This document shows, piece by piece, positions 31,734 through 60,754 of a stretch of DNA of 64,000 bases. A model generated the notes under the pieces. It made no database searches and was not told where the DNA came from. It saw nothing but the letters and a program-made list of their open reading frames with translations. A program made the position numbers and the translations under genes. Source of the DNA: an uncultured Gammaproteobacteria bacterium (GTDB taxonomy: Bacteria; Pseudomonadota; Gammaproteobacteria; Eutrophobiales; Eutrophobiaceae); assembly GCA_963976795.1 (NCBI GenBank), contig CAXBLT010000006.1, positions 81,791 to 145,790 of the forward strand. Reading direction: 5' to 3'. Position 1 is the stretch's first letter. Each line of letters opens with the position of its first letter.

Positions 31734-31750
31734 AAATATTTAGCCTCATA

Positions 31751-35404: not shown

Positions 35405-35419
35405 AATTAAAATCCTCTA

Positions 35420-43825: not shown

Positions 43826-45835
43826 ATGAGTCAATCACTAAAAGAAGCCGACATCAATACACACTTTTATTCCCAAAAAGATGTTGACCAAGCTTGGGAT
43901 AGTTTTCTTTGCTCAGGAGGGGCGTCAAAGAATCTGCCTGTACGCGATATGATAGCCAGCTCATGGGAGCGCTGCCTATCTCAAGGTGTCAATCCTGAGC
44001 AAACTGCAGCGCCGCTCTTAGCCACCGAGGGCACCTTACATATCCTTCGCCAAAATAATACTGATCTCATGAAATGCGCACGACCTGTCTTAGCACAGGC
44101 CAGGGTCTTTTTACGCGATCTTGACACAATATTAATTCTGACTGACTACAACGGGGTCAATCTGGATGTTGTCGGAGATCCTAAGTGTGTTGAAGATGCT
44201 GTCGGAATTGGAATGGTGCCAGGTAGTGGCTGGAAAGAGACTGTTTCCGGATCAAATGCTGTAGGTACAGCGATGGCAACGGGGATGCCTACACAAGTCC
44301 ACGGAGAAGAGCATTTCATACAAGGCTTTAAGCCCTGGACATGCACTGCTGGGATAATAAGCGATCCATATGACAATCAATTGATCGGCGTAATTGACGT
44401 TTCTGGCTTATCAGCCACATTTGATAAATTCCACGTCCCTTTAGTCGTATCATGGGCCAATCAAATTCAATTGTCACTCGCCAAAAACACCTCTGAGCAA
44501 TGGAGTCTCATCAGAGAAAACAGCCAGTGTGACTTTAAAAATAGTCACCGAAATGCTGGGAGAATGTTATTTGATACGCAAGGAAGGCTGGTTGACCACT
44601 CTCAAAATGCCTGTTCAATACTCAATTCACTCGGTATTGGATATGATCTTTCTATGAAGTCTCGCTTATCGCTAGAGCGTTTTGGCGGAGACGAGATTGT
44701 GTATCCTCATGACGCAGGGTTATGGCTATCAAGTGATTGGATCGAACCCGTCAAGGATAAAAACGAGGTGATAGGTTTCAAGATAGAACTACCCACAAAC
44801 AAACGCTCCTCGCAACGAACAAACCCATCGTCTGCTATTGCAGCGGTTAAAATCAACTCACAAGCAGATCCTTTTGGCAAAATATCAGGACAAAGTGCAT
44901 CAGTTAGAGCCAGCATTGAAAAAGCTAGTAAAGCAGCTACGACACCACTTCCTGTTCTAATTTTAGGCGATACAGGTGTCGGAAAAGAAATGTTTGCTCG
45001 AGCTATACATGAAGCGAGTAACTTCGCTAATGGTCCATTTATTGACCTGAACTGTGGCGCTTTCACTAAAGATATTTTAAGCAGTGAACTATTTGGTCAT
45101 GTCGAGGGTGCTTTCACAGGCGCAAAAAGAGGCGGTATGATGGGGAAAATTGAAGCTGCAAATGGCGGCACACTATTTCTGGATGAGATAGGTGAAATGC
45201 CACTTGAGATTCAACCTGTTTTTCTAAGGGTTTTACAAGAAAGAAAGATACATCGTGTTGGTGCTATTGCACCAATTCCAGTCAACTTTAGACTCATTGC
45301 TGCCACAAATAGTTATCTTAAACGAGAAGTTTCTGAAGGCCGATTTAGAAAAGATTTATTCTTCCGTTTATCCACAGTTGCAATTGCGCTTGATCCTCTT
45401 TCAAGACGAAAAGAAGACATTGAAGAGATTGCACACTTAGTTTTAAAAGAAATTCAAAATTCTCAAGAGATTGTGCCTAAACGAATATCCGCCTCTTTAA
45501 TAACCTCACTAAAAAACCGGGAATGGCCAGGCAACATTAGAGAGTTAGTAAATGTGATTGAATGCATGTGTTATATGTCTTCAAATGAGACCCTAACCAT
45601 TGAGGATTTACCTGCCGGTTATCAACCGGGAGAATCACTGATCAGCGGAGTACCTTCTGAACAAAATCAACCGTCTGAGTCTCTATCGAACCTGGATATT
45701 GCAGAACAACAAGCAATTGAAAATGCAATTATTGAGTTTGGTGGCAATATCACTCAAGCAGCTAAAAACCTGGGCATCGCAAAAGGTACCCTCTATCGAA
45801 AAATGAAAAAATATAAATTAGAAAATCCTCGTTAG
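43826..45835 (+). CDS. Sigma-54-dependent enhancer-binding transcriptional activator of the AcoR/AcxR type (N-terminal sensory domain, AAA+ sigma54-interaction domain, C-terminal Fis-type HTH).
   Basis: AAA+ motifs: Walker A 'GDTGVGKE', GAFTGA motif 'GAFTGA', 'GGTLFLDEIGEMP'. C-terminal HTH 'AAKNLGIAKGTLYRKMKKY'. N-terminal '...ASSWERCLSQGVNPE...' as in AcoR-family regulators. Confidence 0.85.
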   Translation: MSQSLKEADINTHFYSQKDVDQAWDSFLCSGGASKNLPVRDMIASSWERCLSQGVNPEQTAAPLLATEGTLHILRQNNTDLMKCARPVLAQARVFLRDLDTILILTDYNGVNLDVVGDPKCVEDAVGIGMVPGSGWKETVSGSNAVGTAMATGMPTQVHGEEHFIQGFKPWTCTAGIISDPYDNQLIGVIDVSGLSATFDKFHVPLVVSWANQIQLSLAKNTSEQWSLIRENSQCDFKNSHRNAGRMLFDTQGRLVDHSQNACSILNSLGIGYDLSMKSRLSLERFGGDEIVYPHDAGLWLSSDWIEPVKDKNEVIGFKIELPTNKRSSQRTNPSSAIAAVKINSQADPFGKISGQSASVRASIEKASKAATTPLPVLILGDTGVGKEMFARAIHEASNFANGPFIDLNCGAFTKDILSSELFGHVEGAFTGAKRGGMMGKIEAANGGTLFLDEIGEMPLEIQPVFLRVLQERKIHRVGAIAPIPVNFRLIAATNSYLKREVSEGRFRKDLFFRLSTVAIALDPLSRRKEDIEEIAHLVLKEIQNSQEIVPKRISASLITSLKNREWPGNIRELVNVIECMCYMSSNETLTIEDLPAGYQPGESLISGVPSEQNQPSESLSNLDIAEQQAIENAIIEFGGNITQAAKNLGIAKGTLYRKMKKYKLENPR

Positions 45836-45918: not shown

Positions 45919-46905
45919 TTATTCATTATTCACAAGCACCATCCCATAAAAACCAGCTTGTTCAATTAGCTCATGTGATTCTACGATTTTATCCAATGCT
46001 ATTATGTGTGCGATCCTGTGCTGTAATAAACCTCTTTCCAGAAAATCTGTGACATCGTAGATTGCATCTGCCTTAGCTGACTCTGGCATCGCATAAACCA
46101 ATACCATGCGTATCGTTAGATCCATAAACATCATTCGTTTAAAAGGTATCACGGGTTCTGGAACCTGCATTGAAGCATAAGTCGCAATCGTAGCACCTAT
46201 ACGTGCCACATCTAAAAGTACAGGCAGATTCCCGCCAAACTCACCATCAATAATACGTTCAACACCCTGACCATTTGTCATTTCAGCAACCGTATCAAGC
46301 AATTCAACTCCTTGATGTGGACAAACTACATCGGCACCCGCAGCATAGCAATGCGCTTCTGCCTCAGAATTACTCGCTGTCGCAATTACATTGGCGCCGG
46401 CATATTTTGCAAGCTGAATAACATAATGACCTACTCTTCCAGCACCGCCCGTTACCAAGATTGTTTGACCTTCGACCGGGCCATCAGCAAAGATACATCG
46501 ATGTGCCGTCATGGTGGGTATCCCTATACACGCACCAATATCAAATCCAATATTATCGGGTAGTAGCACTGCTCTATTGGAATCAACTGACACGTATTCA
46601 GCGGCGGTTCCAAAACGGCGGCCATACTGAGCTTGATAAACCCAAACGCGCTCACCTATCCGCGAATGTGGTACACCACGGCCAACGGCTTCTATTACGC
46701 CTGAGCCATCACTATGAGGGATAATAAAACCATCTTTAAGTAAATCTGGAAACGCACCTGCACGTTTTTTCACATCTGACGGGTGTACTGCAGAATAATT
46801 TAACCGTACTAAAACCTCTCCATGTTCTGGTGAAGGGACATCAAGCTCAACGATATTCAACACATCATGTGCCGAACCCATCTTATTATATTGTGCTGCC
46901 TTCAT
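45919..46905 (-). CDS. MDR-family NAD(P)-dependent oxidoreductase (quinone-oxidoreductase-like), distal gene of the carboxylase operon.
   Basis: 328 aa. GroES-like N-domain and Rossmann motif 'ILVTGGAGRVGHYVIQLAK'. Confidence 0.8.
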   Translation of the reverse strand: MKAAQYNKMGSAHDVLNIVELDVPSPEHGEVLVRLNYSAVHPSDVKKRAGAFPDLLKDGFIIPHSDGSGVIEAVGRGVPHSRIGERVWVYQAQYGRRFGTAAEYVSVDSNRAVLLPDNIGFDIGACIGIPTMTAHRCIFADGPVEGQTILVTGGAGRVGHYVIQLAKYAGANVIATASNSEAEAHCYAAGADVVCPHQGVELLDTVAEMTNGQGVERIIDGEFGGNLPVLLDVARIGATIATYASMQVPEPVIPFKRMMFMDLTIRMVLVYAMPESAKADAIYDVTDFLERGLLQHRIAHIIALDKIVESHELIEQAGFYGMVLVNNE

Positions 46906-46999
46906 TAACTTACCTTTTATCCTTTACTTGATTGTGCATCAAGTCTAATAACCATAATTAAAAGAATATCGCTCATTAATCAACCTGATGAATAGCACA

Positions 47000-48016
47000 C
47001 TATCGGTCATTAACAATAACGATTTTGCCAAAATGCTTAGCTGCAGTGAGATGCTCATAAGCACCCATTGCATCGCTAAATGCAAATGACTTATCAATAG
47101 TTGGCTTAAGATTATTATCAATAATAACCTTGTTCATCGCATTAAACATCTCAACACTACCGACATAAATCCCGTGAACCCGCAGTAGATTAAATATTAC
47201 GGATAAATTAAATGCTGGTCCATCAAACCCGGATAACAATCCAATCATTGAAACGATACCATTGACCTTTGCCGAAGCTATCGATTTTTCAAAAGTGCCT
47301 ACACCACCAACTTCCAATACATTATCAACACCATTTCCATCCGTAATTTTTAAGACTTCATCTTCCCAGTCAGGATGTTCACGATAATTAACTGTATGAT
47401 CAGCACCCATCTTACGAGTCCGTTCTAATTTTTCATCACTGGATGAAGTAATAATAACTCTTGCGCCCAAAGCTTTTGCCAACTGTAAACCAAAAATGGA
47501 AACACCTCCGGTTCCCAACAACAATACTGTATCACCTTTTTTTAAGTCCCCCATTGATACTAATGCATGCCATGCAGTAACGGCGGCGCAAGGCAAAGTC
47601 GCAGCTTCTTCATACGATAATTGTTCAGGAATGGGTAATGCAGCATTTGCTTTTAAAACAAAGTAATCAGCCAAAACACCATTAATTGAACCACCTAATG
47701 CAGAGTGCAAACCTGCCATACTCATCGGTCCGTCAATCCATTCCTGAAAGAAATTACCAACAACCCTATCCCCTACCTTATGAGTTGTAACCGAACTACC
47801 AACAGCAACAACTTCTCCGGCACCATCTGACACAGGAATAATGGGTCTAATATCATTGCGTACATAACCACCTTGTGGAATCAGCAAATCACGAAAGTTA
47901 AGTGAACATGCTTTCATTTTCACCAAAACCTCATCCGCTGCCGGTTTTGGTTCGTTTAACTCGATCAGTTTTATATCTTCAAAACCATCTGTTGTTTGTA
48001 CCTGATATGCACGCAT
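47000..48016 (-). CDS. MDR-family zinc-type alcohol dehydrogenase / quinone oxidoreductase.
   Basis: 338 aa. 'LVKMKACSLNFRDL', 'VLLLGTGGVSIFGLQLAKALGARVI'. Confidence 0.8.
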   Translation of the reverse strand: MRAYQVQTTDGFEDIKLIELNEPKPAADEVLVKMKACSLNFRDLLIPQGGYVRNDIRPIIPVSDGAGEVVAVGSSVTTHKVGDRVVGNFFQEWIDGPMSMAGLHSALGGSINGVLADYFVLKANAALPIPEQLSYEEAATLPCAAVTAWHALVSMGDLKKGDTVLLLGTGGVSIFGLQLAKALGARVIITSSSDEKLERTRKMGADHTVNYREHPDWEDEVLKITDGNGVDNVLEVGGVGTFEKSIASAKVNGIVSMIGLLSGFDGPAFNLSVIFNLLRVHGIYVGSVEMFNAMNKVIIDNNLKPTIDKSFAFSDAMGAYEHLTAAKHFGKIVIVNDR

Positions 48017-48090
48017 AAACTTTTAAACCTCTTTAAAAATTATTGTGAATTGTAAAGCGTTAAATTTCTGTTTGTAAATCACAGTCTAAT

Positions 48091-49356
48091 TTATTTCACA
48101 CGCCGCATAACAGAAACGCAGTTTGTTACCCCTGAACCGCCTATGTTAACGGTCATCGCCAATTCCGGCTGCCCTTTTGCAGCAACACCAATAGGATCGC
48201 CGATTAGTTGTTTATAAGCCAACGCATGCATAGATGCACCTGTTGCGCCAACAGGGTGCCCCTTTGACTTAAGACCTCCGGAAAGATTGATAGGACAACT
48301 CCCGTCCGTATCATATTTTCCTTCCATAAAGTCGTACCCTGCACGACCCGATTCAGATAGTCCCATCGCTTCTGCACAGAGCATTTGGTTTATGGTAAAG
48401 CAATCGTGAACTTCTGCTAACTCCATATCTGTCACCTTCACCCCTGCCTCGGTACACGCTTGTTGTACAGCGTGTTTTGCCGCTTGAAGCTCATGTAAGG
48501 TTTCTTTGCGCTCGCTCATCATCATACGTTGTGTCACATGACCTATACCAGAAAGTTCAACAGCATGGTTAAAGTTCGCTTTAGCATTCTCAGTTGATGT
48601 AAGAACAACTGCAGCAGCGCCATCAGAAATCAAAGAACAATCATGCAGTCTTAATGGTGGTGCAATCAGTGGATTACTGCCTTTACCTGAGTCAGGTAAA
48701 TCAAGAATAGCATCTGCGGTCACTAATTGCTTTTTATCAGGCAGGCTTCCAGGCCCAAAGTGAGCTAGCGGATTATGAATGCCATTGCGATAATTTTGCG
48801 CAGCAATATGCGCAAACATAATGCGAAGTTCTTCATCACTCATTCCATGTTTTGCTTGATAGGCTTTTGCTAACTCACCAAACAAGCCAGGGAAAGTCAC
48901 ACCCATAGAACCCTCTTCGGGCCAATATGAACTACACGCCAAGGCATGAGTAACACCTTTAGTATCCAACAGACTCATTTTCTCAACACCAAGCGCAAGG
49001 ACATTCTTAAAACGACCACTGGCCACGGCATAAGCTGCGTTATATATAGCAACAGATGAAGTTGCACAAGCGCCTTCCGTACGTGTTGTTGGTTTATAGA
49101 GTAATCCATCGGGATCAATTTCCAACGCCAATGGTGCCACATGTTCCTGATTTACGAACATGGAAGGAGAACAAGAGCCGAGCCAAACTGCATCGATATC
49201 CTTTGCCTCCAGACCGGCATCGGCAATTGCACCTGCCCCTGCTTCTATTATTAATTCATAAAACGATTTTAAATCTTCTACTTCACCTGTTTCTCTATCA
49301 CGCTTAACAAACGCACCGAACTGAGTATTGTGTGCACCAACTATACTAATATCCAT
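48091..49356 (-). CDS. Thiolase-superfamily protein (SCP-x / nonspecific-thiolase-like), a candidate beta-ketoacyl-CoA thiolase.
   Basis: 421 aa. The N-terminus 'MDISIVGAHNTQFGAF' and C-terminal 'NLSGGLKSKGHPVGATG' are thiolase-fold signatures. Confidence 0.8.
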   Translation of the reverse strand: MDISIVGAHNTQFGAFVKRDRETGEVEDLKSFYELIIEAGAGAIADAGLEAKDIDAVWLGSCSPSMFVNQEHVAPLALEIDPDGLLYKPTTRTEGACATSSVAIYNAAYAVASGRFKNVLALGVEKMSLLDTKGVTHALACSSYWPEEGSMGVTFPGLFGELAKAYQAKHGMSDEELRIMFAHIAAQNYRNGIHNPLAHFGPGSLPDKKQLVTADAILDLPDSGKGSNPLIAPPLRLHDCSLISDGAAAVVLTSTENAKANFNHAVELSGIGHVTQRMMMSERKETLHELQAAKHAVQQACTEAGVKVTDMELAEVHDCFTINQMLCAEAMGLSESGRAGYDFMEGKYDTDGSCPINLSGGLKSKGHPVGATGASMHALAYKQLIGDPIGVAAKGQPELAMTVNIGGSGVTNCVSVMRRVK

Positions 49357-49431
49357 CTGACTGTCCTCTCCACATAAAAACGTGGATTAAAAATGTGAAA
49401 AATAAAATTAAAGATATAACAAAATTTGAAT

Positions 49432-50997
49432 TTATATTTTGCGATCAAGCTTGTCCCAAAAATATTTACGGATTTCTTTTTTCAATACTTTGCCAACAGA
49501 GCTACGAGGTAATTCATCCCAAATTAAAATCTCTTTTGGCGATTTAACGCTGCCTAATTTTTGCTTACAAAGTTCAATTATTTCTTGTGTATTCGGTTTA
49601 ATAGCAGCTTCCTTTAGTTCAACTACGGCTGTTACTTGCTCACCCCATTTTTCATCCGGGATACCAATAACTGCACAGTCTTTTATTGCTGGATGCCCCC
49701 AGATAAGTTGTTCAATCTCCCCGGGGTACACATTAAACCCGCCAGATATGATCATATCGCGTTTGCGATCGACAATAGATAAATATCCATCATTATCAAA
49801 GACGCCAACATCTCCGGTTTTTTGCCAGCCATTTACACGTATCTCTTGCGTTGCATCTGGGTTATTGAAGTAACAACGCATTATTAAGTCCCCTTTTACG
49901 GCAATTTCACCTTCTTTTCCTGCTGGAAGCGTATTCCCATCATCATCCAGAATTGCTAGATCAATATGTGGTGCTGTTTTGCCACAAGAACGAATCCTGG
50001 AAGAATCACCGCTTTCAACTGCATGAACATGATCATCAACTGAGAGAAAAGTACAAACCATTGGCGATTCTGCCTGCCCATATGTTTGAACCATCACAGG
50101 ACCAAAAACCTCAATGGCTTCTTTGAGTTTTTCTACGGACATCGGCGCAGCGGCATACCAAAAATACCTTAAACTTGAGTAATCATAATTCCTGACGCCT
50201 TCATGAGCCAATAGCATATATATGGCTGTGGGTGGCAAAAATAGATGCGTGACCTTATATTTTTCGATAACAGATAATAAAATATCGGGGATCATGCCTT
50301 CCATTACAACGATGTTTGAGCCTTGTAAAATCGGTGCAAATGACGCAACACCTGCGGCATGCGTCATCGGCGCACTCACAAGATAGCATGAAGGTATATC
50401 AGGTTCTGGCATTAATTCTATTTGAATAGACACCATCGATTGCCATGTTAAGTATCCCCACTCTGCTAATTTAGAATCACCTGTTGTACCTCCCGTTGGG
50501 AACAAACTTACTAATTTAGACTCATCTCTTCTTGTTAGCTTTTCTTCTGTGTCTTGATCAATACTCTTTATAAAATTTTCAATTGCAACTCCAGCTATTT
50601 CTTTAGCTGTAAATGACAAACAATTCTCACCCTTATATTGTTCGCCAAGCTCAGGATTAGAAGCAAGGATGTTCGAGTCAACAAAAAGTAACCTTGTATC
50701 AGATTTTTTTAGTAACTTTAAATTAGCTTCCAGAGTATTTCTAACATTGAGTGGTAACCAGATCGCACCTAATTGGGAAATTGCAAAAATACAGCAATAG
50801 GCGGCAACAGAATTTGGCGCATAACTTGCGACAACATCCTGCTCATGAACACCTTTGTCTCTTAACTGTACGGCAATATGTTGTGCTACATTAAATACTT
50901 CTTGATAGCTAAGTGAAACATCATTGTCGATATCGATAAACTTTGCATCACCCTCGGCAAACGCAGGGCTATGTTCGAGAAAATCAATAATGCGCAT
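49432..50997 (-). CDS. AMP-dependent acyl-CoA ligase, a candidate beta-ketoacid--CoA ligase.
   Basis: 521 aa. AMP-binding motifs 'FPTGGTTGDSK' and 'YGQAESPM'. C-terminal 'SSVGKVLKKEIR'. Confidence 0.85.
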   Translation of the reverse strand: MRIIDFLEHSPAFAEGDAKFIDIDNDVSLSYQEVFNVAQHIAVQLRDKGVHEQDVVASYAPNSVAAYCCIFAISQLGAIWLPLNVRNTLEANLKLLKKSDTRLLFVDSNILASNPELGEQYKGENCLSFTAKEIAGVAIENFIKSIDQDTEEKLTRRDESKLVSLFPTGGTTGDSKLAEWGYLTWQSMVSIQIELMPEPDIPSCYLVSAPMTHAAGVASFAPILQGSNIVVMEGMIPDILLSVIEKYKVTHLFLPPTAIYMLLAHEGVRNYDYSSLRYFWYAAAPMSVEKLKEAIEVFGPVMVQTYGQAESPMVCTFLSVDDHVHAVESGDSSRIRSCGKTAPHIDLAILDDDGNTLPAGKEGEIAVKGDLIMRCYFNNPDATQEIRVNGWQKTGDVGVFDNDGYLSIVDRKRDMIISGGFNVYPGEIEQLIWGHPAIKDCAVIGIPDEKWGEQVTAVVELKEAAIKPNTQEIIELCKQKLGSVKSPKEILIWDELPRSSVGKVLKKEIRKYFWDKLDRKI

Positions 50998-51027
50998 TTT
51001 GTTTCCTGAGCAAAACTTGCCCGGAGA

Positions 51028-51882
51028 CTAAGTTCTTAAACGAGAAAGCGTATCAAGTACTAATTCAGGTGTTGTATCTTCAGGAATAGTAAGATAGTTA
51101 AAATTATTTCCTGATGAAACAGTTTCCTGCCCTTCCCATAATGGTTTGCTGATATCCTTACCGATAGAACTTTCTGTTCCTGCGCTGTCTACAGGGGCAA
51201 TAGAGAAATTAACATCTTCAGGTACACTAAAACCAGCATCTGAAAAAGGAAGGTGTAATCCCACTGACCAACGGTAATGTTTAGTAACGTTATATATCGG
51301 CTGATACCAGGTCAATTCTTCTATGCTTTGGGGCATTGAATCAGGATCTTCTCTCAGTAACACACCTGATAAATCCACTTCGCTAAAGTATCTCAAATAA
51401 TCAGCTACATACATTGAGACAGTGTCTATATGTGTTTCTTCGGGTTCTACATCGACCCCATTAGCAGCCTTGTTTGCTTTGATTAACAAACAACGTGGTG
51501 ACGGTATAACTAATACAATCGGCACTGAGCCGCCATAGTTATTCCCAATTGCCGTTAGCACTTCTGCTAACAACTCCCTTGGAGCAAAAGCTTCCAGCAT
51601 TGTTTTTACCGCAACTGTTATGCGTTTTTTACCAGCCATCGATGGGATAGCTTCTTCATCTTCTTGCATCCAATGATGAAACAGATCCCAGATGTCGATT
51701 ACAACAACGTCTGCATTTACTAAACCATGTGCCTGTCCATAAAAAGACATATAAGCAGGAGGATTAGTCCATGGGTTTTCTCCTTCTGCTAATAACAACT
51801 TTTTGGTATAGGCATTGAAATCAATCCAAAGCTTAGGAGGTCCGTCTCCAACAGATAAATAGTTAACTAAATCTATAGCCAT
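51028..51882 (-). CDS. Conserved hypothetical protein (about 32 kDa). It is a candidate fifth (epsilon-like) subunit of the carboxylase complex. This is inferred from position and size only.
   Basis: 284 aa. It is 2 bp downstream of the HyuB-like gene and 30 bp upstream of the CoA ligase. Acetophenone carboxylase has a 34-kDa epsilon subunit in the same operon position (remembered from the literature, not verified by alignment). Confidence 0.45.
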   Translation of the reverse strand: MAIDLVNYLSVGDGPPKLWIDFNAYTKKLLLAEGENPWTNPPAYMSFYGQAHGLVNADVVVIDIWDLFHHWMQEDEEAIPSMAGKKRITVAVKTMLEAFAPRELLAEVLTAIGNNYGGSVPIVLVIPSPRCLLIKANKAANGVDVEPEETHIDTVSMYVADYLRYFSEVDLSGVLLREDPDSMPQSIEELTWYQPIYNVTKHYRWSVGLHLPFSDAGFSVPEDVNFSIAPVDSAGTESSIGKDISKPLWEGQETVSSGNNFNYLTIPEDTTPELVLDTLSRLRT

Positions 51883-51883
51883 T

Positions 51884-54163
51884 TTACTTACGTTTATCCT
51901 TAGCTTCTATACCAGATTTTTTTCTAACGGCTTCAAGTTCTTCTTCAAGCTTTCTAATTTCGACATCTTTAGGATGTTCAAAATAAACCGGCCCCGGGTT
52001 GTTAGGATCACGTTTATCATCAGGGCTACCTGCATAAACTGTACTCAAATCACTATTCCAGGAACCATAAAAAGGAATATCTTTTGGAGGAACATCGCTC
52101 ACATGCTTCTTGACAAACTCAGCATACGGGACACCTTGTTTCTTGCGTTGTTCTCTGTAAGCATCGCGCAGTTTTTTGGTTCCTTCTTCATCAACAACCA
52201 ATGTCTCTTCATCAAATTCAACTTTATAAAGCTTCTTTGCCCACTCAGGAGTCGTCAACCGTTCTTCGATATCTTTAATAACCAAAGCAGGGTCACGTTC
52301 TAATGGATCGCCATAACCACCACCTGAACCTTGAGAGATCATGTACAACTCACCACGTTTTGAGATAGAGAAACCCATCCCCATGTGGTGCGACGTATAA
52401 TTTGCACCTTCATAAGGCTCTTCGTTCATCGTCTCTTCAATCGAGTGTTTAAATTTATCCGGATCTTTCAGCATGATGTCATAAACATCGACACCAGAAA
52501 CTTTACATAAGGGGTATGCCCCTGGTGCATAACCACCAAATAAACCTGAGAGTGATGGAACTTTGGATCCGACACAAGTCGTCATAAAACCCCACTGGTC
52601 ACTATCTTTCGTCGCAACCATTTGTGTATAGCCCATACCACCACGATACTTTCCTGCTGCTTGTGTATTCGTCGTCATTTTTTTCGAGACCAACTGCAAG
52701 AATGGCACATCTTCTTCATTCATCTCTTGCTCACCAATATCTGCCATTGAAGCAAAAATAGGAGCCAAGGCATGTTCACCGTCCATATCCATACGTGCAC
52801 CACCGCCCATACCATTTAGATCTGCACAAAGGTTACCGAGCATCTCGCCATGTTGACTTACGCCACCCCAAATATAAGTACAGATCATGTTAAACCAGGG
52901 TGCTAAAACACGCGTGTATTTAACCGGTACACTATACAAGAATTTAGCGGTAGCTTGTTGAGCAACAGTAAAGGATAAAAAGATCGACATCAAACTCTGA
53001 GAGTTAGGTGCATCAACACTGGCATTAACAATCGAATATGGAGGTGTAATCACTTCAATCGGTGCAAAACCTGCCTGACCTCGTGGCAAATCTGGCCAGA
53101 TATGGTTTAGAAATGCTTGAGACATCATGCCTTTACATCCTGGTATAGCCGTATTGATCGCACGGTTAGTAATCTCAGGACTAGAACCTCTAAGGTCGAA
53201 TATCAAGCGGTCGTCTTTTTTCGTCAAGGTACAATTCAATTTGATTAATGCATTTTCGCGTAAGGTACTATCCATTGTGCAGTAGGTACGAACGGTCATG
53301 TCAGGCCATTCCTTAATACGACGACGTACTTCAGTCATTACATCATCATTAGTACTACGTAGGCATGCGATTAATGCATCAGGGCCATCTAATGCCAAAA
53401 TTTCCCTAAGGCGTTTTTCAAGACGCATACAAGCGAAGAGCTTTACCTTCATATCTTCGTATTGCAGCTTTGGTTCACGCACCGAGTTTTGCAAAAAGGT
53501 TAGAAGATCTTTTTTAATCTCATAGTTTTCTACAACCCTGAAAGGCGACATCTTCAGGCCTTCATCAAACGGTGATTCCGCCATTGATGGCATACCACCG
53601 GGTTCGATGGCTCCATTTTCACCTTCATGTACAGTCGACGCCACCCAAGCAACCAGTTCGCCTTCATGAAAGATAGGCATAATCATACTTTGGTCGGTAT
53701 TATGTACATTACCGTAACGTGAATCATTATGAATAAATCCATCACCCTGTTTCAAACCAACAGTATGTTCATTGATCCAGTTCTTAATAATGAATTTAAT
53801 CGGATGGTGAACTACTACATTAAAAATAAGTACACCGCCAGCACTACCAATAGTTAAATCACCCGAGGCTGAATAGATCCCGGTAATAACGTCCCCCCAT
53901 TTTGCACCTGGGGCGGCACCCATTTGTTCCAGCATCTCATAACTCTCGTCGCAAGCAGATTGCATACGGTCACGGATTGAAGCCATCTGATGTGGATCAT
54001 TATGTTTCTTAATAGACTCTGTTTCGCGATCTGTAATCGGCATAATGTCATGCGATTGCATTATTTCCTGATCCGGTCCGAGGAATAAAGTCGTTTCCTT
54101 TAGAAATTTTGCAACTAATTCCTGATCTTCAAGAACTGCTTCTGCACTAAGTTTATCGTTCAT
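51884..54163 (-). CDS. Hydantoinase B / oxoprolinase-family subunit (acetone/acetophenone carboxylase HyuB-like subunit).
   Basis: 759 aa. HyuB core motif region 'GFIHNDSRYGNVHNTDQSMIMPIFHEGELVAWVASTVHEGENGAIEPGGMP'. Confidence 0.85.
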   Translation of the reverse strand: MNDKLSAEAVLEDQELVAKFLKETTLFLGPDQEIMQSHDIMPITDRETESIKKHNDPHQMASIRDRMQSACDESYEMLEQMGAAPGAKWGDVITGIYSASGDLTIGSAGGVLIFNVVVHHPIKFIIKNWINEHTVGLKQGDGFIHNDSRYGNVHNTDQSMIMPIFHEGELVAWVASTVHEGENGAIEPGGMPSMAESPFDEGLKMSPFRVVENYEIKKDLLTFLQNSVREPKLQYEDMKVKLFACMRLEKRLREILALDGPDALIACLRSTNDDVMTEVRRRIKEWPDMTVRTYCTMDSTLRENALIKLNCTLTKKDDRLIFDLRGSSPEITNRAINTAIPGCKGMMSQAFLNHIWPDLPRGQAGFAPIEVITPPYSIVNASVDAPNSQSLMSIFLSFTVAQQATAKFLYSVPVKYTRVLAPWFNMICTYIWGGVSQHGEMLGNLCADLNGMGGGARMDMDGEHALAPIFASMADIGEQEMNEEDVPFLQLVSKKMTTNTQAAGKYRGGMGYTQMVATKDSDQWGFMTTCVGSKVPSLSGLFGGYAPGAYPLCKVSGVDVYDIMLKDPDKFKHSIEETMNEEPYEGANYTSHHMGMGFSISKRGELYMISQGSGGGYGDPLERDPALVIKDIEERLTTPEWAKKLYKVEFDEETLVVDEEGTKKLRDAYREQRKKQGVPYAEFVKKHVSDVPPKDIPFYGSWNSDLSTVYAGSPDDKRDPNNPGPVYFEHPKDVEIRKLEEELEAVRKKSGIEAKDKRK

Positions 54164-54177
54164 AGTTTATTACCTCG

Positions 54178-56325
54178 TTATTTCTTTGCTTCGTCGCGCA
54201 GGAACCAAACGGCACCCTGTTCAGCAGACACATAATTCCAACCTTTTTCGATAAGGTAGGTCGTTACATCAGATGCCACGATACCCGGGCCTTCAATTTG
54301 AGTTCCCGCTGGAATATCATCTTTATTCCAAACTGGCGTATCAATCGCCTTACTTTCACCAACAAAATAACACTTACGTGTTGATGATGGTTTCGGCGGC
54401 GCCTTTCGTTTATCTTCGGCTATAGGCTTAATATGTTTAAAGTGAACCGTGTCATGCTCCACATATGAAGCGACGCGAATGGTATTGATACGAATACCTG
54501 CCTCAGGGGCCTGGCTACCTTCACCAAAACGCTTGCCATAATCTGTAGAAAACAGATCGAGTATATTCAATACATCTAACGCTGATTCGACAGTGTGTTT
54601 TGGTATAACAACTGTGGTTTGTACAAGCTGGTTACCGTAACGCATATCAAGCTCAAGCGAATGTAGAATATCGCCTTCGTCTGCACCCTGTCTGGCTAAG
54701 TCAGCTCTGCCTTTTTCACTTAGACCAGCGACAATGTCGTTGAATCGAGCATAATTATCAAACACATGTCGACTATTAGAATCATAAAGAACCATGAATA
54801 ATGAGGCTTCATGAATATGCATCTGATGCATATTACCCGCACCAACCGCAGAGAATACAGAACTCATCGGCGTTGCTAAAATCTTGTTGATGTTCAAACG
54901 GCCCGCGATACCACAGCAATGTAATGGACCATTACCACCATAAGCCAGCATGGTAAAATCTTCAGGGTCATAACCTCGAGCACGTAACTCGGTATTCACA
55001 CCATTAGCCATATTAGCATCAACTTTTTCCTTAATCATCAGGGCAGCTTCAACCACTTCAACATCCAGGTCATCACAAAGTGTTTCTTCGATTGCGAAGT
55101 TTGAACGCTTGGGATTCAGAGGAATTGCACCACCTGCATAATTCTCTGCATCGAGATAACCCAAAACCAAATCTGCATCAGTAACAGTCGGGTTCATGCC
55201 ACCACGGTCATAACATGCTGGACCTGGATCAGAACCTGCACTCTTAGGCCCTACAGCAACCGTGTTATACATACGATCATAAGAGGCGATAGAACCACCA
55301 CCTGCACCCAATGTCACCAAGTGAACCATCGGTACAGAAACCATCCAACGATCAATAACAGGGTTGAAGTCATAATGTTTAATACCACCCTCAACAACGA
55401 TACCAATGTCATAACTGGTACCACCCATATCGGTAGCGACAACACTACCCAGATCAGCTTCTTTAGCTAGATGTTCAGAAGCACTGATCCCAGAAACTGG
55501 ACCAGAGTGAATAGTTTGCAACGCATCAGTTGAGTTTAACTGCGCCATACCACCTGAGTTATGAATAACCAACATGGGTTTCACGTAAGCATGTGCGCGC
55601 AGATTTTGTTCCAACTGAGTCATCGCGTGGTACATAGTCGAATGCAAATAACCATCAACGACTGCTGAAGAGGCTCGAACATATTCACCTTTTCGCCCTG
55701 CAACACGATGAGAAAGAATGACCGGGATAGCACCTAACAGATGCGAGGGATATTCCTCAAGAATAATCTGCTCAACACGTTTTTCATTCATTGGGTTAAC
55801 CACTGAATTAACAAAACAGATAACAATAACTTGAGCCCCTTTATCAAATAAGGTCCTGATCTTAAGTCGGACATCATCTTCATTAAGTGGCATAACGACC
55901 TTACCTTCAAAGTCCAGACGCTCACGCACACCTTCTATCATATTTGGCAATACTAATGGATCAGGACGTCGGGCATCAGGCAAATTGGCCTTACCTAACT
56001 TGTCCAGACCTTCACCATAACCACGCGCACGACTAAGAGGCACTGTTGCTTCAAAACCTGCTGTAACCAGCATGCCCATGCGAGGGCCTTTGTGTTCTAT
56101 TAATGCATTTGTCCCAAGCGTTGTCGCATATCGAACCGAATCAACTTCAGATAGAATTTCTTCCATAGTAATATTCAATTCGCTATATGCTTTTTCTACA
56201 GCCTCATTAAACCCTAAGGCTAAATTTTGGTGTGTCGTTAACGCTTTGGTTTCGATATATTTATTATCCCAAACCAAAAAACAATCGGTAAAAGTGCCGC
56301 CGATATCAACTGATATTCGTTTCAT
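54178..56325 (-). CDS. Hydantoinase A / oxoprolinase-family subunit (HyuA-like, 715 aa).
   Basis: N-terminal Hydant_A_N motif 'MKRISVDIGGTFTDCFLV'. C-terminal hydantoinase-A domain. Confidence 0.85.
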   Translation of the reverse strand: MKRISVDIGGTFTDCFLVWDNKYIETKALTTHQNLALGFNEAVEKAYSELNITMEEILSEVDSVRYATTLGTNALIEHKGPRMGMLVTAGFEATVPLSRARGYGEGLDKLGKANLPDARRPDPLVLPNMIEGVRERLDFEGKVVMPLNEDDVRLKIRTLFDKGAQVIVICFVNSVVNPMNEKRVEQIILEEYPSHLLGAIPVILSHRVAGRKGEYVRASSAVVDGYLHSTMYHAMTQLEQNLRAHAYVKPMLVIHNSGGMAQLNSTDALQTIHSGPVSGISASEHLAKEADLGSVVATDMGGTSYDIGIVVEGGIKHYDFNPVIDRWMVSVPMVHLVTLGAGGGSIASYDRMYNTVAVGPKSAGSDPGPACYDRGGMNPTVTDADLVLGYLDAENYAGGAIPLNPKRSNFAIEETLCDDLDVEVVEAALMIKEKVDANMANGVNTELRARGYDPEDFTMLAYGGNGPLHCCGIAGRLNINKILATPMSSVFSAVGAGNMHQMHIHEASLFMVLYDSNSRHVFDNYARFNDIVAGLSEKGRADLARQGADEGDILHSLELDMRYGNQLVQTTVVIPKHTVESALDVLNILDLFSTDYGKRFGEGSQAPEAGIRINTIRVASYVEHDTVHFKHIKPIAEDKRKAPPKPSSTRKCYFVGESKAIDTPVWNKDDIPAGTQIEGPGIVASDVTTYLIEKGWNYVSAEQGAVWFLRDEAKK

Positions 56326-56382
56326 AATCTACTTTCCTATAACTTTTTAGTAGTTTGACTTATTGTTCGTAGTATTTATTAA

Positions 56383-56790
56383 CTAGTGGCTATGTTTATG
56401 ACGCTCACGTTCACCTAAAACGTCAGGACCAATCGTTGCCTCTGTAATCTCTTCTCGATGACTCCACTGCTCTTTCAGAGCGTCTACATCAACTTCCATA
56501 TCATAGAGTGGCTCATGATTTGGCATAGTGTTCTCAACTTCAACCTGCGTACCACAACTTGGACAATAAAACTCAAGAATATTGACCCAGTCTTTATCAG
56601 GACAAAATGTGAATTTATATTTTTCGGGATCGATAATATGAGGATGGATATCTGCCGGGTCGCGATTATAAACCAACAAACCTTCCTTGTAATTCCCACG
56701 AGCAGAGCCAATCACATGCTCACAAACACGACATTCCCAATTTTCTGTATCCAAATCGATACGAAGGTATTCGGTCATTAAAACTTTCAT
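56383..56790 (-). CDS. Acetone/acetophenone carboxylase gamma-subunit-like small zinc-ribbon protein.
   Basis: 135 aa with two Cys pairs 'CRVCEH' and 'CPSCGT'. 'EFYCPSCGTQVEVE' parallels acetone carboxylase gamma 'EYFCPECGTLHDVE'. It overlaps the upstream HyuA-like gene by 1 nt. Confidence 0.75.
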   Translation of the reverse strand: MKVLMTEYLRIDLDTENWECRVCEHVIGSARGNYKEGLLVYNRDPADIHPHIIDPEKYKFTFCPDKDWVNILEFYCPSCGTQVEVENTMPNHEPLYDMEVDVDALKEQWSHREEITEATIGPDVLGERERHKHSH

Positions 56791-58727
56791 TATTTAGCCC
56801 CCTTAGTCAGACAGATATCACCTGCCTCTGTCACAACAAATTCCCAACCTTCACGTACAAGGCAGGTAAAGTAATCTTCTTCAATAACTGCTGGTCCAGC
56901 AGCATGTGCACCCGGCTTCATCTCATTCACGCTATAGACTGAAACGTCCTGGCTCTTCAGATCACTGCCAACAATTGTTCGTGTACCTGATGCTGTAGCC
57001 GCCTTGCCTTTTTTGGTTTTGACCTGCTTGTTATCTTCAGTCTTCAAAGGTTTAGTCGCTATCACTTCGAGCGTGACTGAATCCGCTTTTTCTAAAGCTT
57101 TTGGCAATGTCACTTTCCCATCTAATTGATGAGTAGATTCTTCTGAACCTGACTCACTTACCAACTGTGCACTTATTTCAATGTCGCCTTTAGCGAAACC
57201 TTCTGCAAACATATCACGTTCAGCACGTTCAATAAGATCATCGTAAGCTGATTTGAGCGAGTCTTGATTATTAGCAGATAGCACGACAGCATAGCTCTGC
57301 CCAATATCGCAAGATCCTATACCGAAAGCACTGAACACAGCGGCAGTCTTTGGCACATAGACTGTATTAATACCTGCCAACTCTGCTACGCCACAAGCAT
57401 TCATGGGGCCAGCGCCACCAAATGCCAATAGCACAGTATCATTCGTAACATCACCAAAACCTTTGAGACCGTCAGCAATCTTTTGCTCATAAGCATCACG
57501 CAGTTTGTGCAGTGCTTCATCAACGGAAATGCCTAATGGTGATGCAACATTTTCATCTATAGCTGCACGACCACGCTCAATATCGAGCTTTAAGCCACCA
57601 CCGAAATAGGTTGATGGATCGAGCAAGCCCAAGAGTAGATTAACATCTGTAATTGTTGAACTTTTACCACCTCGACCAAAACTAGCTGGCCCTGGAACTG
57701 CGCCAACACTTTCAGGTCCTACCTGAATAGCACCGTCTTTAACAGACAGAATAGAACTGCCACCAACACCTTCACTGTGAATCTCACACAAACCAAAAGA
57801 AATAGGCACGCCTTCTACTTTACCGCGTCGCTCTTCATTTAGATTCAAATCAACAAGGTGACCAATATCAGTTGTCGTTCCACCCACATCCATAGTCATT
57901 GCGTTTGAAAGACCATATTGCTTACAGAATGTCTTCACACCTTCCATTCCGCCGCGTGGACCTGAGCTATACGTCTTTAGCGCGATTGTCTTTGCGACAC
58001 GCGATGCGTTGCCATCATTACGAAATATCAGCAATGGATTTTTCGTACGATACTCACGTAGTCGATTCTCAGCATTGTAAAGAAAGCTTTCCATAGCAGG
58101 ATGCAAAAATGAGTTGGTCAATGCAGTCCAACCGCGTCTTTCAGTTGACACATCATCAACCAGCTCGCTAGCAAACAGCATCGGTACGGCACCTAACAAG
58201 TGACGCGGATAAACATCAAATGCCAGTGTTTTGAATTGGGACTCAAACTTCGCAGCCTGATCAGCATCGAAACACACAACGAGGCGATTGGCACCCATAG
58301 ATGTAAGACCGGTAATAACGGTCGCTGTATCGGCAGCTTTTGCTTCATCACCCAAATCGGCAAGATCAACTTCAGAGATTCGGTCGCCGACTAAGAAGTC
58401 GAACAAATCTTCATCTTGCGCGCGCATACGCTTAGCTAAGTCTGCATTGCCTTTATTCAGTATCAATCCCAGTTTTGGCCCCTTACGCTCTACAATAGCG
58501 TTAGTCCCCTGAGTGGTTGAATAACGAATATGCTCAACTTCCATCAGAAGTTTTGCGACATCTTCTTCACCGTAAATCACAGTTGAGATTGATTTTAGAC
58601 CGTCGAAAAAACACTTACTTAAATCATACGGCGTAGTAAGCGTTTTTGTTTTATAAACACTTTTATCTTTCAGTACACATATATCAGTCAACGTTCCACC
58701 GTTGTCGATATTAACTAACATTCCCAT
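56790..58727 (-). CDS. Second hydantoinase A-family subunit (HyuA-like paralog, 645 aa), first gene of the operon.
   Basis: N-terminal 'MGMLVNIDNGGTLTDICVL' (Hydant_A_N). It is paralogous to 54178..56325. Confidence 0.85.
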   Translation of the reverse strand: MGMLVNIDNGGTLTDICVLKDKSVYKTKTLTTPYDLSKCFFDGLKSISTVIYGEEDVAKLLMEVEHIRYSTTQGTNAIVERKGPKLGLILNKGNADLAKRMRAQDEDLFDFLVGDRISEVDLADLGDEAKAADTATVITGLTSMGANRLVVCFDADQAAKFESQFKTLAFDVYPRHLLGAVPMLFASELVDDVSTERRGWTALTNSFLHPAMESFLYNAENRLREYRTKNPLLIFRNDGNASRVAKTIALKTYSSGPRGGMEGVKTFCKQYGLSNAMTMDVGGTTTDIGHLVDLNLNEERRGKVEGVPISFGLCEIHSEGVGGSSILSVKDGAIQVGPESVGAVPGPASFGRGGKSSTITDVNLLLGLLDPSTYFGGGLKLDIERGRAAIDENVASPLGISVDEALHKLRDAYEQKIADGLKGFGDVTNDTVLLAFGGAGPMNACGVAELAGINTVYVPKTAAVFSAFGIGSCDIGQSYAVVLSANNQDSLKSAYDDLIERAERDMFAEGFAKGDIEISAQLVSESGSEESTHQLDGKVTLPKALEKADSVTLEVIATKPLKTEDNKQVKTKKGKAATASGTRTIVGSDLKSQDVSVYSVNEMKPGAHAAGPAVIEEDYFTCLVREGWEFVVTEAGDICLTKGAK

Positions 58728-58845: not shown

Positions 58846-58861
58846 AGCATTTATCATGCCA
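58846..58861 (-). promoter_or_regulatory. Candidate sigma-54 (-24/-12) promoter, TGGCAT-gataa-ATGCT, about 120 nt upstream of the first carboxylase gene.
   Basis: The minus strand reads TGGCATGATAAATGCT. GG and GC are spaced exactly as in the TGGCAC-N5-TTGCW consensus. Confidence 0.5.
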
Positions 58862-59008: not shown

Positions 59009-60022
59009 CTATACATCCTTGACACGAATTATCAACTTGCCTGTATTTGCGCCCGAATATAATTTTTTAACTGTTTCCAAGGCATTCTCCAAGCCATCAA
59101 CAACATCCTGGCGTACCTTTACCCTGCCTTCGCCCATCCATTGAGTCAGTGCGCTAATAGCCTCAGGATATCTATCCATATAATCAAGAATGATAAACCC
59201 TTGGATCTTAAGACGCTGCATTAACACCATTCCGTAATTTTTCGGCCCATGAACTTCACCAACAGCATTGTATTGAGACATGAGTCCGCAGGTTGAAATA
59301 CGTCCATTTAAATTCATTTGTTTTAGACAGGCATCAAGTATTTCGCCACCGACGTTGTCGAAATAAACATCAATTCCAGCTGGGCACGCTTGATGTAATG
59401 CCTCACTTATATTTTCAGTTTTGTAATTTATGGCCTTATCAAAGCCAAGGTCTTCAGTAATCCATCGGCATTTTTCATCCGTTCCTGTAAGTCCAACAAC
59501 ATGGCAACCTTGAATCTTGGCAATCTGTCCAACAATCGATCCGACTGCTCCTGCAGCGGTAGAAACAACAACTGTTTCACCTGCTTGTGGATGAGTAATA
59601 TCAAGTAAGCCGAAATAAGCTGTCGGGCCAACGAGGGCGAATGTGCCAAAAGCATCAACAATCGAAACAGAGCCCGTATCACCCATAACACTGACTGTTT
59701 CAGGTGTGCCAATTTGGTAGTCCGCCCAAGAACCTAAGCCGCTAACAATATCGCCTTCTTTAAAAACGGCATTCTTGCTTTTAACAACCGTCCCACATAC
59801 TACGCCGCGCATCGGATCATTGAGTGCTACTGGCGGCATATACTGATCCATATCGCTCATCCAGATACGGTTAGTAGGATCTAAAGATAGGTAATTAAGA
59901 CGAAAGAGGCATTCTCCCGTATCAGGTTCAGGTAGAGATTCTTCTTCAAGACTTAAGACGTCGTTCGTAATATCCCCAATAGGACGCTTACGCAATCGCC
60001 AGACACGGTTGATTTCAGACAT
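59009..60022 (-). CDS. NADPH-dependent alkenal/enone oxidoreductase (MDR family, YncB/CurA/PTGR-like).
   Basis: 337 aa. 'RLNYLSLDPTNRIWMSD' aligns with E. coli YncB/CurA 'RTVYLSLDPYMRGRMSD'. C-terminal 'GKLIIRVKDV' resembles 'GKVVIRVAGDD'. Confidence 0.85.
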   Translation of the reverse strand: MSEINRVWRLRKRPIGDITNDVLSLEEESLPEPDTGECLFRLNYLSLDPTNRIWMSDMDQYMPPVALNDPMRGVVCGTVVKSKNAVFKEGDIVSGLGSWADYQIGTPETVSVMGDTGSVSIVDAFGTFALVGPTAYFGLLDITHPQAGETVVVSTAAGAVGSIVGQIAKIQGCHVVGLTGTDEKCRWITEDLGFDKAINYKTENISEALHQACPAGIDVYFDNVGGEILDACLKQMNLNGRISTCGLMSQYNAVGEVHGPKNYGMVLMQRLKIQGFIILDYMDRYPEAISALTQWMGEGRVKVRQDVVDGLENALETVKKLYSGANTGKLIIRVKDV

Positions 60023-60057
60023 TAACTTAAAGACTACCCCTGAACTGTTATTTTATT

Positions 60058-60134
60058 ATTGTTGACAATTATATCGATAAAAACGAGTTTATAACGCGTA
60101 AATTAGCATTTCAACCCTATATTGTCGACAATTA
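60058..60134. promoter_or_regulatory. Bipartite operator copy 2: ATTGTTGACAATT (60058..60070) and ATTGTCGACAATTA (60121..60134), upstream of the YncB-like reductase gene.
   Basis: Same two boxes and about 60-bp box-to-box spacing as at 31751..31823. The intervening sequence is also conserved with copy 3 ('aaattagcatttcaaccctat'). Confidence 0.45.
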
Positions 60135-60200
60135 CCATAGTAATTGAAAAATGAAAGGACTATGTAGGAATGATAATGTATTTTCTATCTATTAGGGTGC

Positions 60201-60659
60201 TCAATCATTTACTACCTGAAATACTTCGTATTCCACCTTACCAGGCACCAAACGCCCGCGTGCAACACAAAAGATATTATTCACCCAACTATATCGTGCG
60301 TCGCCAGTTTGCATCCGTGGGTTAGTAAAAAAATATTGGTCTCCGAAATTTGTCCCGCTTTCGCCTTCAAGAGCCGCCATCGTTCCGGCAGTAAGTTCTA
60401 TTACCCCCGAATACTGAACATATATATTTGCACCATCATCTGTCTCGAAACTTGCCCTTACGTCTAGATGACCGTAGCCTTCCTCACTAATTGTCATCCA
60501 ATCTGCACAACTTGCGTCACGGATCTTACCGTTGAGTCTTTCACCCTTAAATTCTCCACCGTGTACTTCAAAGGTCATTCGTTTGCCAAAAGGACCATTA
60601 CCGATATCAAGCGCTGTACCTAAATTTGCATAATAAGTGAAAAGTGGTTCAAGTTTCAT
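60201..60659 (-). CDS. DUF3237-like small beta-barrel protein of unknown function (ATG start at 60659).
   Basis: The track ORF starts at a TTG (60686) that lies inside the operator box. The ATG giving 'MKLEPLFTYYANLG...' is preferred. 'GPFGKRMTFEVHGGEFKGERLNGKI...ADWMTISEEGYGHLDVRASFETDDGANIYVQYSG' resembles the DUF3237 family (assignment from memory). Confidence 0.6.
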   Translation of the reverse strand: MKLEPLFTYYANLGTALDIGNGPFGKRMTFEVHGGEFKGERLNGKIRDASCADWMTISEEGYGHLDVRASFETDDGANIYVQYSGVIELTAGTMAALEGESGTNFGDQYFFTNPRMQTGDARYSWVNNIFCVARGRLVPGKVEYEVFQVVND

Positions 60660-60675
60660 TGGATATCCTCTAAAA

Positions 60676-60754
60676 ATTGTTGACAATACTATGTGGTAAA
60701 TGCCAGTTTAGTTTGCTTAAATTAGTTTTTCAACCGTATATTGTCGACAATTAT
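60676..60754. promoter_or_regulatory. Bipartite operator copy 3: ATTGTTGACAATA (60676..60688) and TATTGTCGACAATTA (60738..60754), upstream of the DUF3237 gene.
   Basis: Same as copies 1 and 2. The spacer 'aaattagtttttcaaccgtat' is nearly identical to the copy 2 spacer. Confidence 0.45.

Follow-up and report, generated by a model that had tools for sequence, protein, structure and literature searches.

The 64,000-nucleotide stretch of DNA that we analyzed (the window) comes from an uncultured gammaproteobacterium (contig CAXBLT010000006.1 of assembly GCA_963976795.1). It encodes the methylcitrate operon prpR-prpB-prpC and, elsewhere on the same strand, a double-bond reductase and a protein of the DUF3237 family. 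Each of these three targets is preceded by its own copy of a short cassette in which two operator sites flank a promoter. We propose that the reductase and DUF3237 genes are lineage-specific members of the regulon of the propionate regulator PrpR (PmiR in Pseudomonas aeruginosa), that they are repressed via the two-operator bracket, and that they are derepressed by an intermediate of the methylcitrate cycle. We give this reading a probability of roughly 0.7. The features on which it turns are:

28981-30135, minus strand: prpC, 2-methylcitrate synthase (NCBIfam equivalog, 693 bits versus a cutoff of 550)

30132-31022, minus strand: prpB, methylisocitrate lyase (NCBIfam equivalog, 538 bits versus a cutoff of 353)

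31044-31733, minus strand: regulator of the GntR/FadR subfamily with GntR and FCD domains, similar to PrpR/PmiR orthologues; the presumed cassette-binding repressor

31750-31823, minus strand: reference cassette upstream of prpR-prpB-prpC (proximal site 31750-31761, distal site 31812-31823)

59009-60022, minus strand: putative NADPH-dependent alkenal/alkenone (double-bond) reductase of the medium-chain dehydrogenase/reductase (MDR) superfamily, LTB4DH/PTGR1/CurA subfamily, with ADH_N_2 and ADH_zinc_N domains

60058-60132, minus strand: promoter-operator cassette of the reductase gene (distal site 60121-60132, -35 TTGAAA 60109-60114, -10 TAAACT 60086-60091, proximal site 60058-60069)

60201-60659, minus strand: DUF3237/UPF0311 gene, 152 amino acids (Pfam PF11578, 139 bits versus a cutoff of 24)

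60676-60751, minus strand: promoter-operator cassette of the DUF3237 gene (distal site 60740-60751, -35 TTGAAA 60728-60733, -10 TAAACT 60705-60710, proximal site 60676-60687)

We scanned the whole window for ATTGTYRACAAT and found six perfect 12-mers, which are the six sites listed above, versus 0.04 expected in shuffled sequence. The six form three pairs, with centre-to-centre distances of 62 bp (31750 and 31812), 63 bp (60058 and 60121), and 64 bp (60676 and 60740). One pair precedes prpR-prpB-prpC, one the reductase gene, and one the DUF3237 gene. The polarity of the sites relative to the downstream minus-strand gene is identical for all three pairs. A first-pass annotation of this DNA had noticed the same operator pair at these three targets, and the scan bears it out.

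In the orientation of the gene, each cassette runs from a distal palindrome (ATTGTCGACAAT) through the promoter to a proximal site (ATTGTCAACAAT), which is followed by the ribosome-binding site and the ATG. The promoter between the paired sites is sigma-70-like (TTGAAA-17-TAAACT), and its hexamers are identical at the reductase and DUF3237 genes. If transcription starts about 7 nt past the -10 hexamer, then the operators are centred at about -47 (distal) and about +16 (proximal). The distal site abuts the -35 hexamer, and the proximal one falls past the transcription start but ahead of the ribosome-binding site. The first-pass annotation had put the operator at the -35/-10 region, but neither hexamer is covered; instead, the two sites bracket them. 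The cassette is about 75 bp long and each gene has one copy of its own. As 62-64 bp is about six helical turns, the paired sites would face the same side of the DNA. We predicted no terminators between the DUF3237 gene, the reductase gene, and the carboxylase genes that follow (described below), and transcription may read through among them.

Judged by its sequence, the motif in the window is the published motif of GntR-type PrpR. Suvorova et al. (2015; PMC4494728) placed PrpR among the FadR-subfamily regulators with GT-N2-AC sites, and their supplementary table (file 2) lists predicted PrpR sites ATTGTCGACAAT, ATTGTCAACAAT, and ATTGTTGACAAT, usually two or three of them at the prpR-prpBC promoter, in organisms that include Pseudomonas, Acinetobacter, Alcanivorax, Shewanella, Colwellia, Idiomarina, and Marinomonas. 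The same GntR-type PrpR was predicted in Shewanella by Rodionov et al. (2011). In P. aeruginosa, PmiR (PA0797) represses the prp genes, footprints two sites in the promoter, and is released by 2-methylisocitrate, which binds at the Zn site (PMC9728974).

The regulator in the window has an N-terminal winged helix-turn-helix domain (GntR, 60.8 bits) and a C-terminal FCD domain (89.1 bits), and it matches the structures of PmiR (PDB 7XP0/7XP1) with E = 1.8e-64 and 53% identity. The Zn ligands of PmiR (D143, H147, H192, and H214) correspond to D138, H142, H187, and H209 in the window regulator, and the residues that contact 2-methylisocitrate (R95, R184, and S218) correspond to R92, R179, and S213; all of these are conserved. 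The regulator gene heads prpB-prpC and has its own operator upstream, and this order is kept in three related loci (L008, L019, and L043; the loci that we retrieved are numbered in this way). The window thus shares with the PmiR/PrpR regulon of Pseudomonas, Shewanella, Vibrio, and others the regulator family with its effector and Zn residues, the 12-bp motif, and multiple sites at an autoregulated prpR-prpBC promoter. The repressor logic, with a methylcitrate-cycle intermediate as the inducer of PmiR, is probably shared as well. What differs is the set of targets: the window adds an ene-reductase and a DUF3237 protein, and its relatives add a ketone-carboxylase cluster, aceEF, and a gene of the acetoacetate-decarboxylase family. 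These additions are absent from the prp-locus entries of the published site table, which also lists non-prp targets (CPS_0917, CPS_2159, CPS_4800, Csal_2058, Maqu_1730, and PFL_2633).

A different GntR/FadR paralogue, PhnR-like or PdhR-like, might instead read these copies in response to another signal, such as pyruvate. The published sites of Burkholderia PhnR are also ATTGTTGACAAT, so that PhnR-type GntR regulators share the 12-mer of PrpR (PMC4494728). Furthermore, aceEF, which is a classic target of PdhR, has the same pair in six related metagenome-assembled genomes (MAGs), as does gltA in other gammaproteobacterial MAGs. In these genomes, however, the promoter of prpR has exactly this two-site layout (62-64 bp), for which autoregulation by the adjacent regulator is the simplest explanation, and no second GntR gene adjoins any of the targets in the window. 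We consider the involvement of another paralogue to be improbable.

Under regulation by PrpR, we envision that when there is no flux through propionyl-CoA, PrpR dimers would occupy both sites, probably cooperatively, and would block both the initiation of transcription and escape from the promoter. When propionyl-CoA is condensed to 2-methylcitrate, which gives 2-methylisocitrate, the ligand would bind the FCD domain at its Zn site, and PrpR would come off the DNA. The release of the repressor would then derepress prpBC, the reductase, and the DUF3237 gene together. The arrangement of the cassette resembles the repression by E. coli LldR and by GalR-type repressors, in which a single repressor has operators on either side of the promoter, both on one face of the DNA. 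This likeness suggests cooperative binding or looping, but 63 bp is shorter than classical loop distances, and looping or oligomerization of PrpR/PmiR would be by analogy only.

To see how far the cassette extends among relatives, we collected loci in two ways. First, the species genomes of GTDB were scanned for ATTGTCGACAAT-N48-58-ATTGTCAACAAT, which selects loci by the motif itself and returned 69 of them. Second, loci were retrieved by protein similarity: L001 and L002 were found via homologues of the DUF3237 protein, and 80 loci came from searching metagenomes with the reductase, 72 of which (51-83% identity) had enough upstream sequence for analysis. The window itself matches contigs from Tara Oceans and Logan, and the relatives belong to MAGs labelled as Gammaproteobacteria, Thiotrichaceae UBA973, or "marine bacterium B5-7".

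The loci that were retrieved by protein similarity are the more informative. A perfect pair lies upstream of the reductase in both L001 and L002. Among the 72 metagenome loci, exactly three have the pair (L074, L075, and L128), and these are exactly the loci with DUF3237-reductase-carboxylase synteny; upstream of the other 69 reductase homologues, which lie outside the clade (51-78% identity), there were no operator sites (0/69). Within the clade, the reductase gene has its operator pair in 12 of 12 loci, 5 of which were retrieved by protein similarity rather than by motif. In none of the 12 is the pair decayed or absent, and both 12-mers are invariant. When we aligned the six loci that were not selected by motif, all 24 operator columns were invariant, the mean column identity was 61%, and the upstream flank was essentially unconserved; the -35 TTG and part of the -10 are also kept. 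The DUF3237 gene has an intact pair in the window, L001, L031/L128, and L071, though not in all other loci of the clade. The shared cassette, the known PrpR motif, the adjacent PmiR-like regulator, and the conservation in the clade all uphold the earlier proposal that the reductase and DUF3237 genes are linked to the propionate (methylcitrate) regulon.

In the motif scan, 73 pairs were found when distances of 60-70 bp were allowed, and their spacing is narrow: 62 bp in 36 pairs, 63 bp in 29, 64 bp in 6, and 61 bp and 65 bp in one each. This suggests that the spacing reflects helical phasing. The targets include prpR in many Gammaproteobacteria, among them Vibrio and Enterovibrio, with the same architecture. 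They also include the reductase (L015, L016, L020, L063, and L071), the DUF3237 gene (L031), a 645-amino-acid carboxylase subunit (L011, L016, L020, and L071), and, in more distant gammaproteobacterial MAGs, a prpE-like ligase with about 61% identity to the prpE of the window.

Several other targets lie in other genomes. In six MAGs of the same clade (L013, L033, L042, L046, L060, and L062), the cassette lies about 170 bp upstream of aceE-aceF, which encode the E1 and E2 components of pyruvate dehydrogenase. In this clade, PrpR may also control the oxidation of the pyruvate that is released by methylisocitrate lyase. In L030 (UBA7357) and L051 (UBA7359), the cassette precedes a gene of the acetoacetate-decarboxylase family (Pfam ADC, 171 bits), which is followed by a gene for an unannotated protein of about 275 amino acids. 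In other gammaproteobacterial MAGs (L012, L018, L025, L029, L044, L052, L054, L057, L069, and L073), the identical bipartite element, again with a spacing of 62-63 bp, precedes the gene for a type-I citrate synthase (gltA-like, about 435 amino acids) by about 250 bp. At several of these gltA-linked loci, the distal site is directly abutted by CAT, which reads ATG on the opposite strand and may mark the start of a divergent gene.

The cassettes also appear to have recombined. In L001 (5728-6000), the DUF3237 gene has a chimeric cassette, in which the sequence past the proximal operator is a copy of the 5' untranslated region and first codons of the reductase gene (with ATG changed to ATA), and about 150 bp of unrelated sequence separate the copied part from the ATG of the DUF3237 gene. 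This implies that recombination between copies of the cassette has occurred.

The open reading frame (ORF) for the DUF3237 gene was listed as 60201-60686, with a TTG start at 60686, inside the proximal operator. The first-pass annotation preferred the ATG at 60659, and we agree, because homologues align with the query from its first residues onward, this ATG has a ribosome-binding site (AGAGGA) before it, and the TTG lies within the operator. The homologues are 147-162 amino acids long (most are 149-154) if we set aside some fragments and two gene calls of greater length (164 and 194 amino acids), and the close ones (at least 78% identity) are all 152 amino acids long.

The AlphaFold model of the DUF3237 protein (predicted local distance difference test score of 92.5) is a beta-barrel, and its TM-scores to the UPF0311 barrels from structural genomics (3C5O, 3G7G, and 4PUX) are 0.8-0.9. 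More distant Foldseek matches are PhnH (6JJT, E = 3e-7), DUF3237 proteins from Aspergillus, the PloI4 cyclase, and allene oxide cyclase. DUF3237 was described in the earlier annotation as a protein of no known function, which is outdated at the level of the family: PhcF, PhcG, and PinX are cofactor-free decarboxylases and PhnH is a hydroalkoxylase, and each of the four acts at a conjugated C=C system. The window protein belongs to the same Pfam family and has the same small beta-barrel fold as these enzymes, so the relation is known at the family level, but it is just 18-30% identical to the DUF3237 members with solved structures. Its context also differs, with aliphatic ketone or propionate metabolism in place of the lignin dimers or fungal polyketides of the characterized members.

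The reductase had been called a YncB/CurA-like NADPH enone reductase. This is correct as to the alkenal/alkenone reductases in general, but it does not reach CurA itself: against the CurA/YncB curcumin reductase equivalog (NF058644), the protein scores 360.4 bits, below the cutoff of 440. It scores 230 bits against the LTB4DH model. Its closest solved structures are P. aeruginosa 4B7C, plant double-bond reductases, and PTGR1 (210-323 bits), with PA1648 as the closest solved homologue. Like CurA/YncB, PTGR1/LTB4DH, and the plant alkenal reductases, it combines ADH_N_2 with a Rossmann domain in the MDR architecture and carries the AAGAVGS NADPH-binding motif. From these scores, we classify the reductase as a member of the wider LTB4DH/PTGR/alkenal-reductase subfamily only. 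It differs from CurA/YncB and PTGR1/LTB4DH in its predicted control by the propionate repressor and in being joined to a carboxylase island.

The first-pass annotation had speculated that the reductase converts acrylate or acryloyl-CoA, derived from dimethylsulfoniopropionate (DMSP), to propionate or propionyl-CoA. This would explain the control by the propionate regulator, and the organism is marine. Nevertheless, we rejected the identification as an acryloyl-CoA reductase: the protein scores just 40 bits (NF051456, cutoff 440) and 49 bits (TIGR02823, cutoff 297) against the AcuI/YhdH models, versus 230-360 bits for the LTB4DH and CurA models. Members of its subfamily reduce enals and enones and are not known to act on 2-enoates or enoyl-CoA thioesters. 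Beside the reductase gene, we saw no genes for DMSP or acrylate metabolism (dddX, acuN/K, or a prpE-acuI pairing). A role in acrylate reduction is thus very improbable. Instead, the conserved neighbours of the reductase gene, which encode a ketone carboxylase, a CoA ligase, and a thiolase and which bear the operator in relatives, point to the metabolism of enones or ketones. The neighbouring features are:

45919-58727, minus strand: island directly downstream of the reductase gene, encoding a carboxylase-like enzyme, a 284-amino-acid ORF, an acyl-CoA ligase, a thiolase-domain protein, and two MDR dehydrogenases

51884-58727, minus strand: four-subunit enzyme similar to acetone and acetophenone carboxylases (645, 135, 715, and 759 amino acids)

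43826-45835, plus strand: divergent gene for a sigma-54 activator (enhancer-binding regulator), beside the island

As in acetone carboxylase (AcxABC) and acetophenone carboxylase (Apc), the island encodes subunits of the hydantoinase A/B type and a small Acetone_carb_G subunit. The genes that follow the carboxylase include those for a CoA ligase and a thiolase, which is also the case in the acetophenone pathway. The nearby sigma-54 activator gene is a further likeness to the AcxABC and Apc pathways. The set of subunits is present, but their scores are far below the equivalog cutoffs (338 versus 1250, 119 versus 250, 578 versus 1500, and 306 versus 1500 bits). The ligase, thiolase, and dehydrogenases have generic NCBIfam matches only, and the 284-amino-acid ORF has no match in Pfam.

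In seven loci (L001, L011, L016, L020, L071, L075, and L128), the operator pair lies upstream of the 645-amino-acid subunit; it is absent in the window, L002, L074, and L015, and is decayed in none. In the window, no PrpR site with up to two mismatches lies upstream of the carboxylase cluster. What lies there is a candidate sigma-54 promoter, TGGCATGATAAATGCT (TGGCAT-N5-ATGCT), at about 58846-58861 on the minus strand, 134 nt upstream of the ATG of the carboxylase. In relatives, the PrpR cassette lies at the position of this candidate, which suggests alternative regulatory wiring of the carboxylase cluster. The cluster in relatives would thus differ from AcxABC and Apc in being controlled by PrpR rather than, or besides, a sigma-54 activator.

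Every locus of the clade with enough flanking sequence shows DUF3237-reductase-carboxylase synteny. Outside the clade, reductases of 70-77% identity are often preceded by a divergent DUF3237 gene (163 amino acids, 32-38% identity) without the carboxylase or PrpR sites (L076, L078-L082, L084, L085, L091, L093, L094, L099, L105, and L107). This implies that the pairing of DUF3237 with the reductase is older than its recruitment by PrpR. Where we checked the neighbours of the outside pairs (L076 by Pfam and several others by ORF layout), they were biotin-type genes (bioD, bioC/H, and bioF-like). These biotin genes, together with an M48 peptidase gene, gave no clue as to function.

If the regulon assignment is correct, then we tentatively favour, at somewhat less than even odds, a catabolic role for the two new members. 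The DUF3237-reductase pair would act on an alpha,beta-unsaturated carbonyl compound, which is less certain than the regulation. The saturated ketone or aldehyde would enter the neighbouring route of an ATP-dependent ketone carboxylase, a CoA ligase, and a thiolase, or else a route from aldehyde to propionate. In the version with the island, an enone would be converted to a saturated ketone, carboxylated, activated with CoA, and cleaved by thiolysis to propionyl-CoA, and the whole path would be induced by its product through PrpR. We favour this because the synteny is invariant, because the carboxylase cluster carries the operator in seven loci, and because the other members of the regulon (prpBC, aceEF, and prpE) are coherent with it. 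In particular, aceEF fits because pyruvate is the product of methylisocitrate lyase.

The main rival to the catabolic role is the detoxification of electrophiles, which we consider unlikely. In this explanation, the pair would remove acrolein-like or vinyl-ketone-like carbonyls during growth on odd-chain or other propionate-yielding substrates; PrpR would only time the protection, and no carbon would reach propionyl-CoA. The PTGR1/alkenal reductase/CurA subfamily is classically one of detoxifying ene-reductases. Also consistent with detoxification are the outside pairs that lack the carboxylase and PrpR sites, as well as two loci (L001, 1040-3057, and L002, 4595-5942) in which a gene for a TetR-family regulator and one or two glutathione S-transferase genes adjoin the DUF3237 gene; in L002, the TetR gene directly precedes DUF3237, without a PrpR operator. 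In contrast, within the clade the pair is always joined to the carboxylase-ligase-thiolase island, and the island itself has the PrpR cassette in the seven loci described above, as would be expected of a catabolic route rather than of a stress response.

A more ambitious version of the catabolic role is that this clade, which is abundant, marine, and uncultured, has an undescribed route for short-chain alpha,beta-unsaturated carbonyls or ketones, which would be induced by its product through a PrpR regulon that also governs aceEF. Candidate substrates would be methyl or ethyl vinyl ketone or butanone (volatiles from the oxidation of isoprene or lipids), and the DUF3237 enzyme, the ene-reductase, the four-subunit ATP-dependent ketone carboxylase, the CoA ligase, and the thiolase would together yield propionyl-CoA and acetyl-CoA. 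We view this as slightly less likely even than detoxification. In the literature, we found nothing relevant that links acetone carboxylase or butanone to the methylcitrate cycle.

Several observations weigh against assigning the two genes to the PrpR regulon or against a single pathway. PhnR-type regulators share the 12-mer, so the cassettes could be bound by a paralogue encoded elsewhere in the genome. Because the GTDB scan picked its loci by the motif, they give no measure of its conservation. Some relatives dispense with the operator of the DUF3237 gene: L002 and L074 lack it, and in L075/L020 it has decayed. The carboxylase cluster of the window has a sigma-54-like promoter candidate in place of the operator, which weakens the single-pathway reading for this genome. 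Finally, the operator pair here brackets the promoter at 62-64 bp, while the footprinted sites of P. aeruginosa PmiR are about 27 bp apart, and the geometry of looping or cooperativity is therefore by analogy only.

The prp cluster itself had been described as lacking prpD and acnD-prpF. This holds for the window, as no gene for PrpD, AcnD, or PrpF lies anywhere in its 64 kb, but it is not general: in L008 (5622-8000), a more distant relative whose PrpR is 86% identical, a gene of the aconitase family, presumably acnD, directly follows prpC. The position after prpC is occupied in the lineage of the window by ppsR-ppsA; together with a gene for a prpE-like propionate-CoA ligase on the same strand, they take up 23624-28860 (minus strand). 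The closest relatives share the order short-chain fatty acid transporter, prpR, prpB, prpC, ppsR, ppsA. In L019 and L043, the order is conserved at least through ppsR-ppsA. Phosphoenolpyruvate synthase may be co-expressed with the methylcitrate genes. Nothing more than a half-site, at 25571, was seen at the prpE-like gene of the window; it has two mismatches and does not exceed chance expectation.

The region that adjoins the prp cassette on its upstream side (31849-36124, minus strand) encodes a short-chain fatty acid transporter of the AtoE type, a glutathione S-transferase, and CoA-transferase subunits similar to AtoDA. A ligase of the malonyl-CoA synthase subfamily (22068-23603, plus strand; 726 bits versus a cutoff of 558) is convergent with the prpE-like gene. 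Far from these genes (514-3921, minus strand) is a gene for a 1135-amino-acid protein with He_PIG, EGF-like, Big_9, and cadherin-like repeats; the EGF-like repeats are unusual for a bacterium.

The regulator, its motif, and its logic were already known, and what is new is probably a set of lineage-specific extra members. They extend a known regulon modestly, and the value of this lies in a testable hint at enzyme function rather than in a new regulatory principle. It also illustrates how a complete cassette, with a promoter and two operators, can spread to new genes inside one clade. For an uncultured marine lineage that is seen in many Tara and JGI samples, it provides a regulatory handle on a DUF3237 protein, a CurA-like reductase, and a carboxylase island, and it predicts that these would act upstream of propionyl-CoA.

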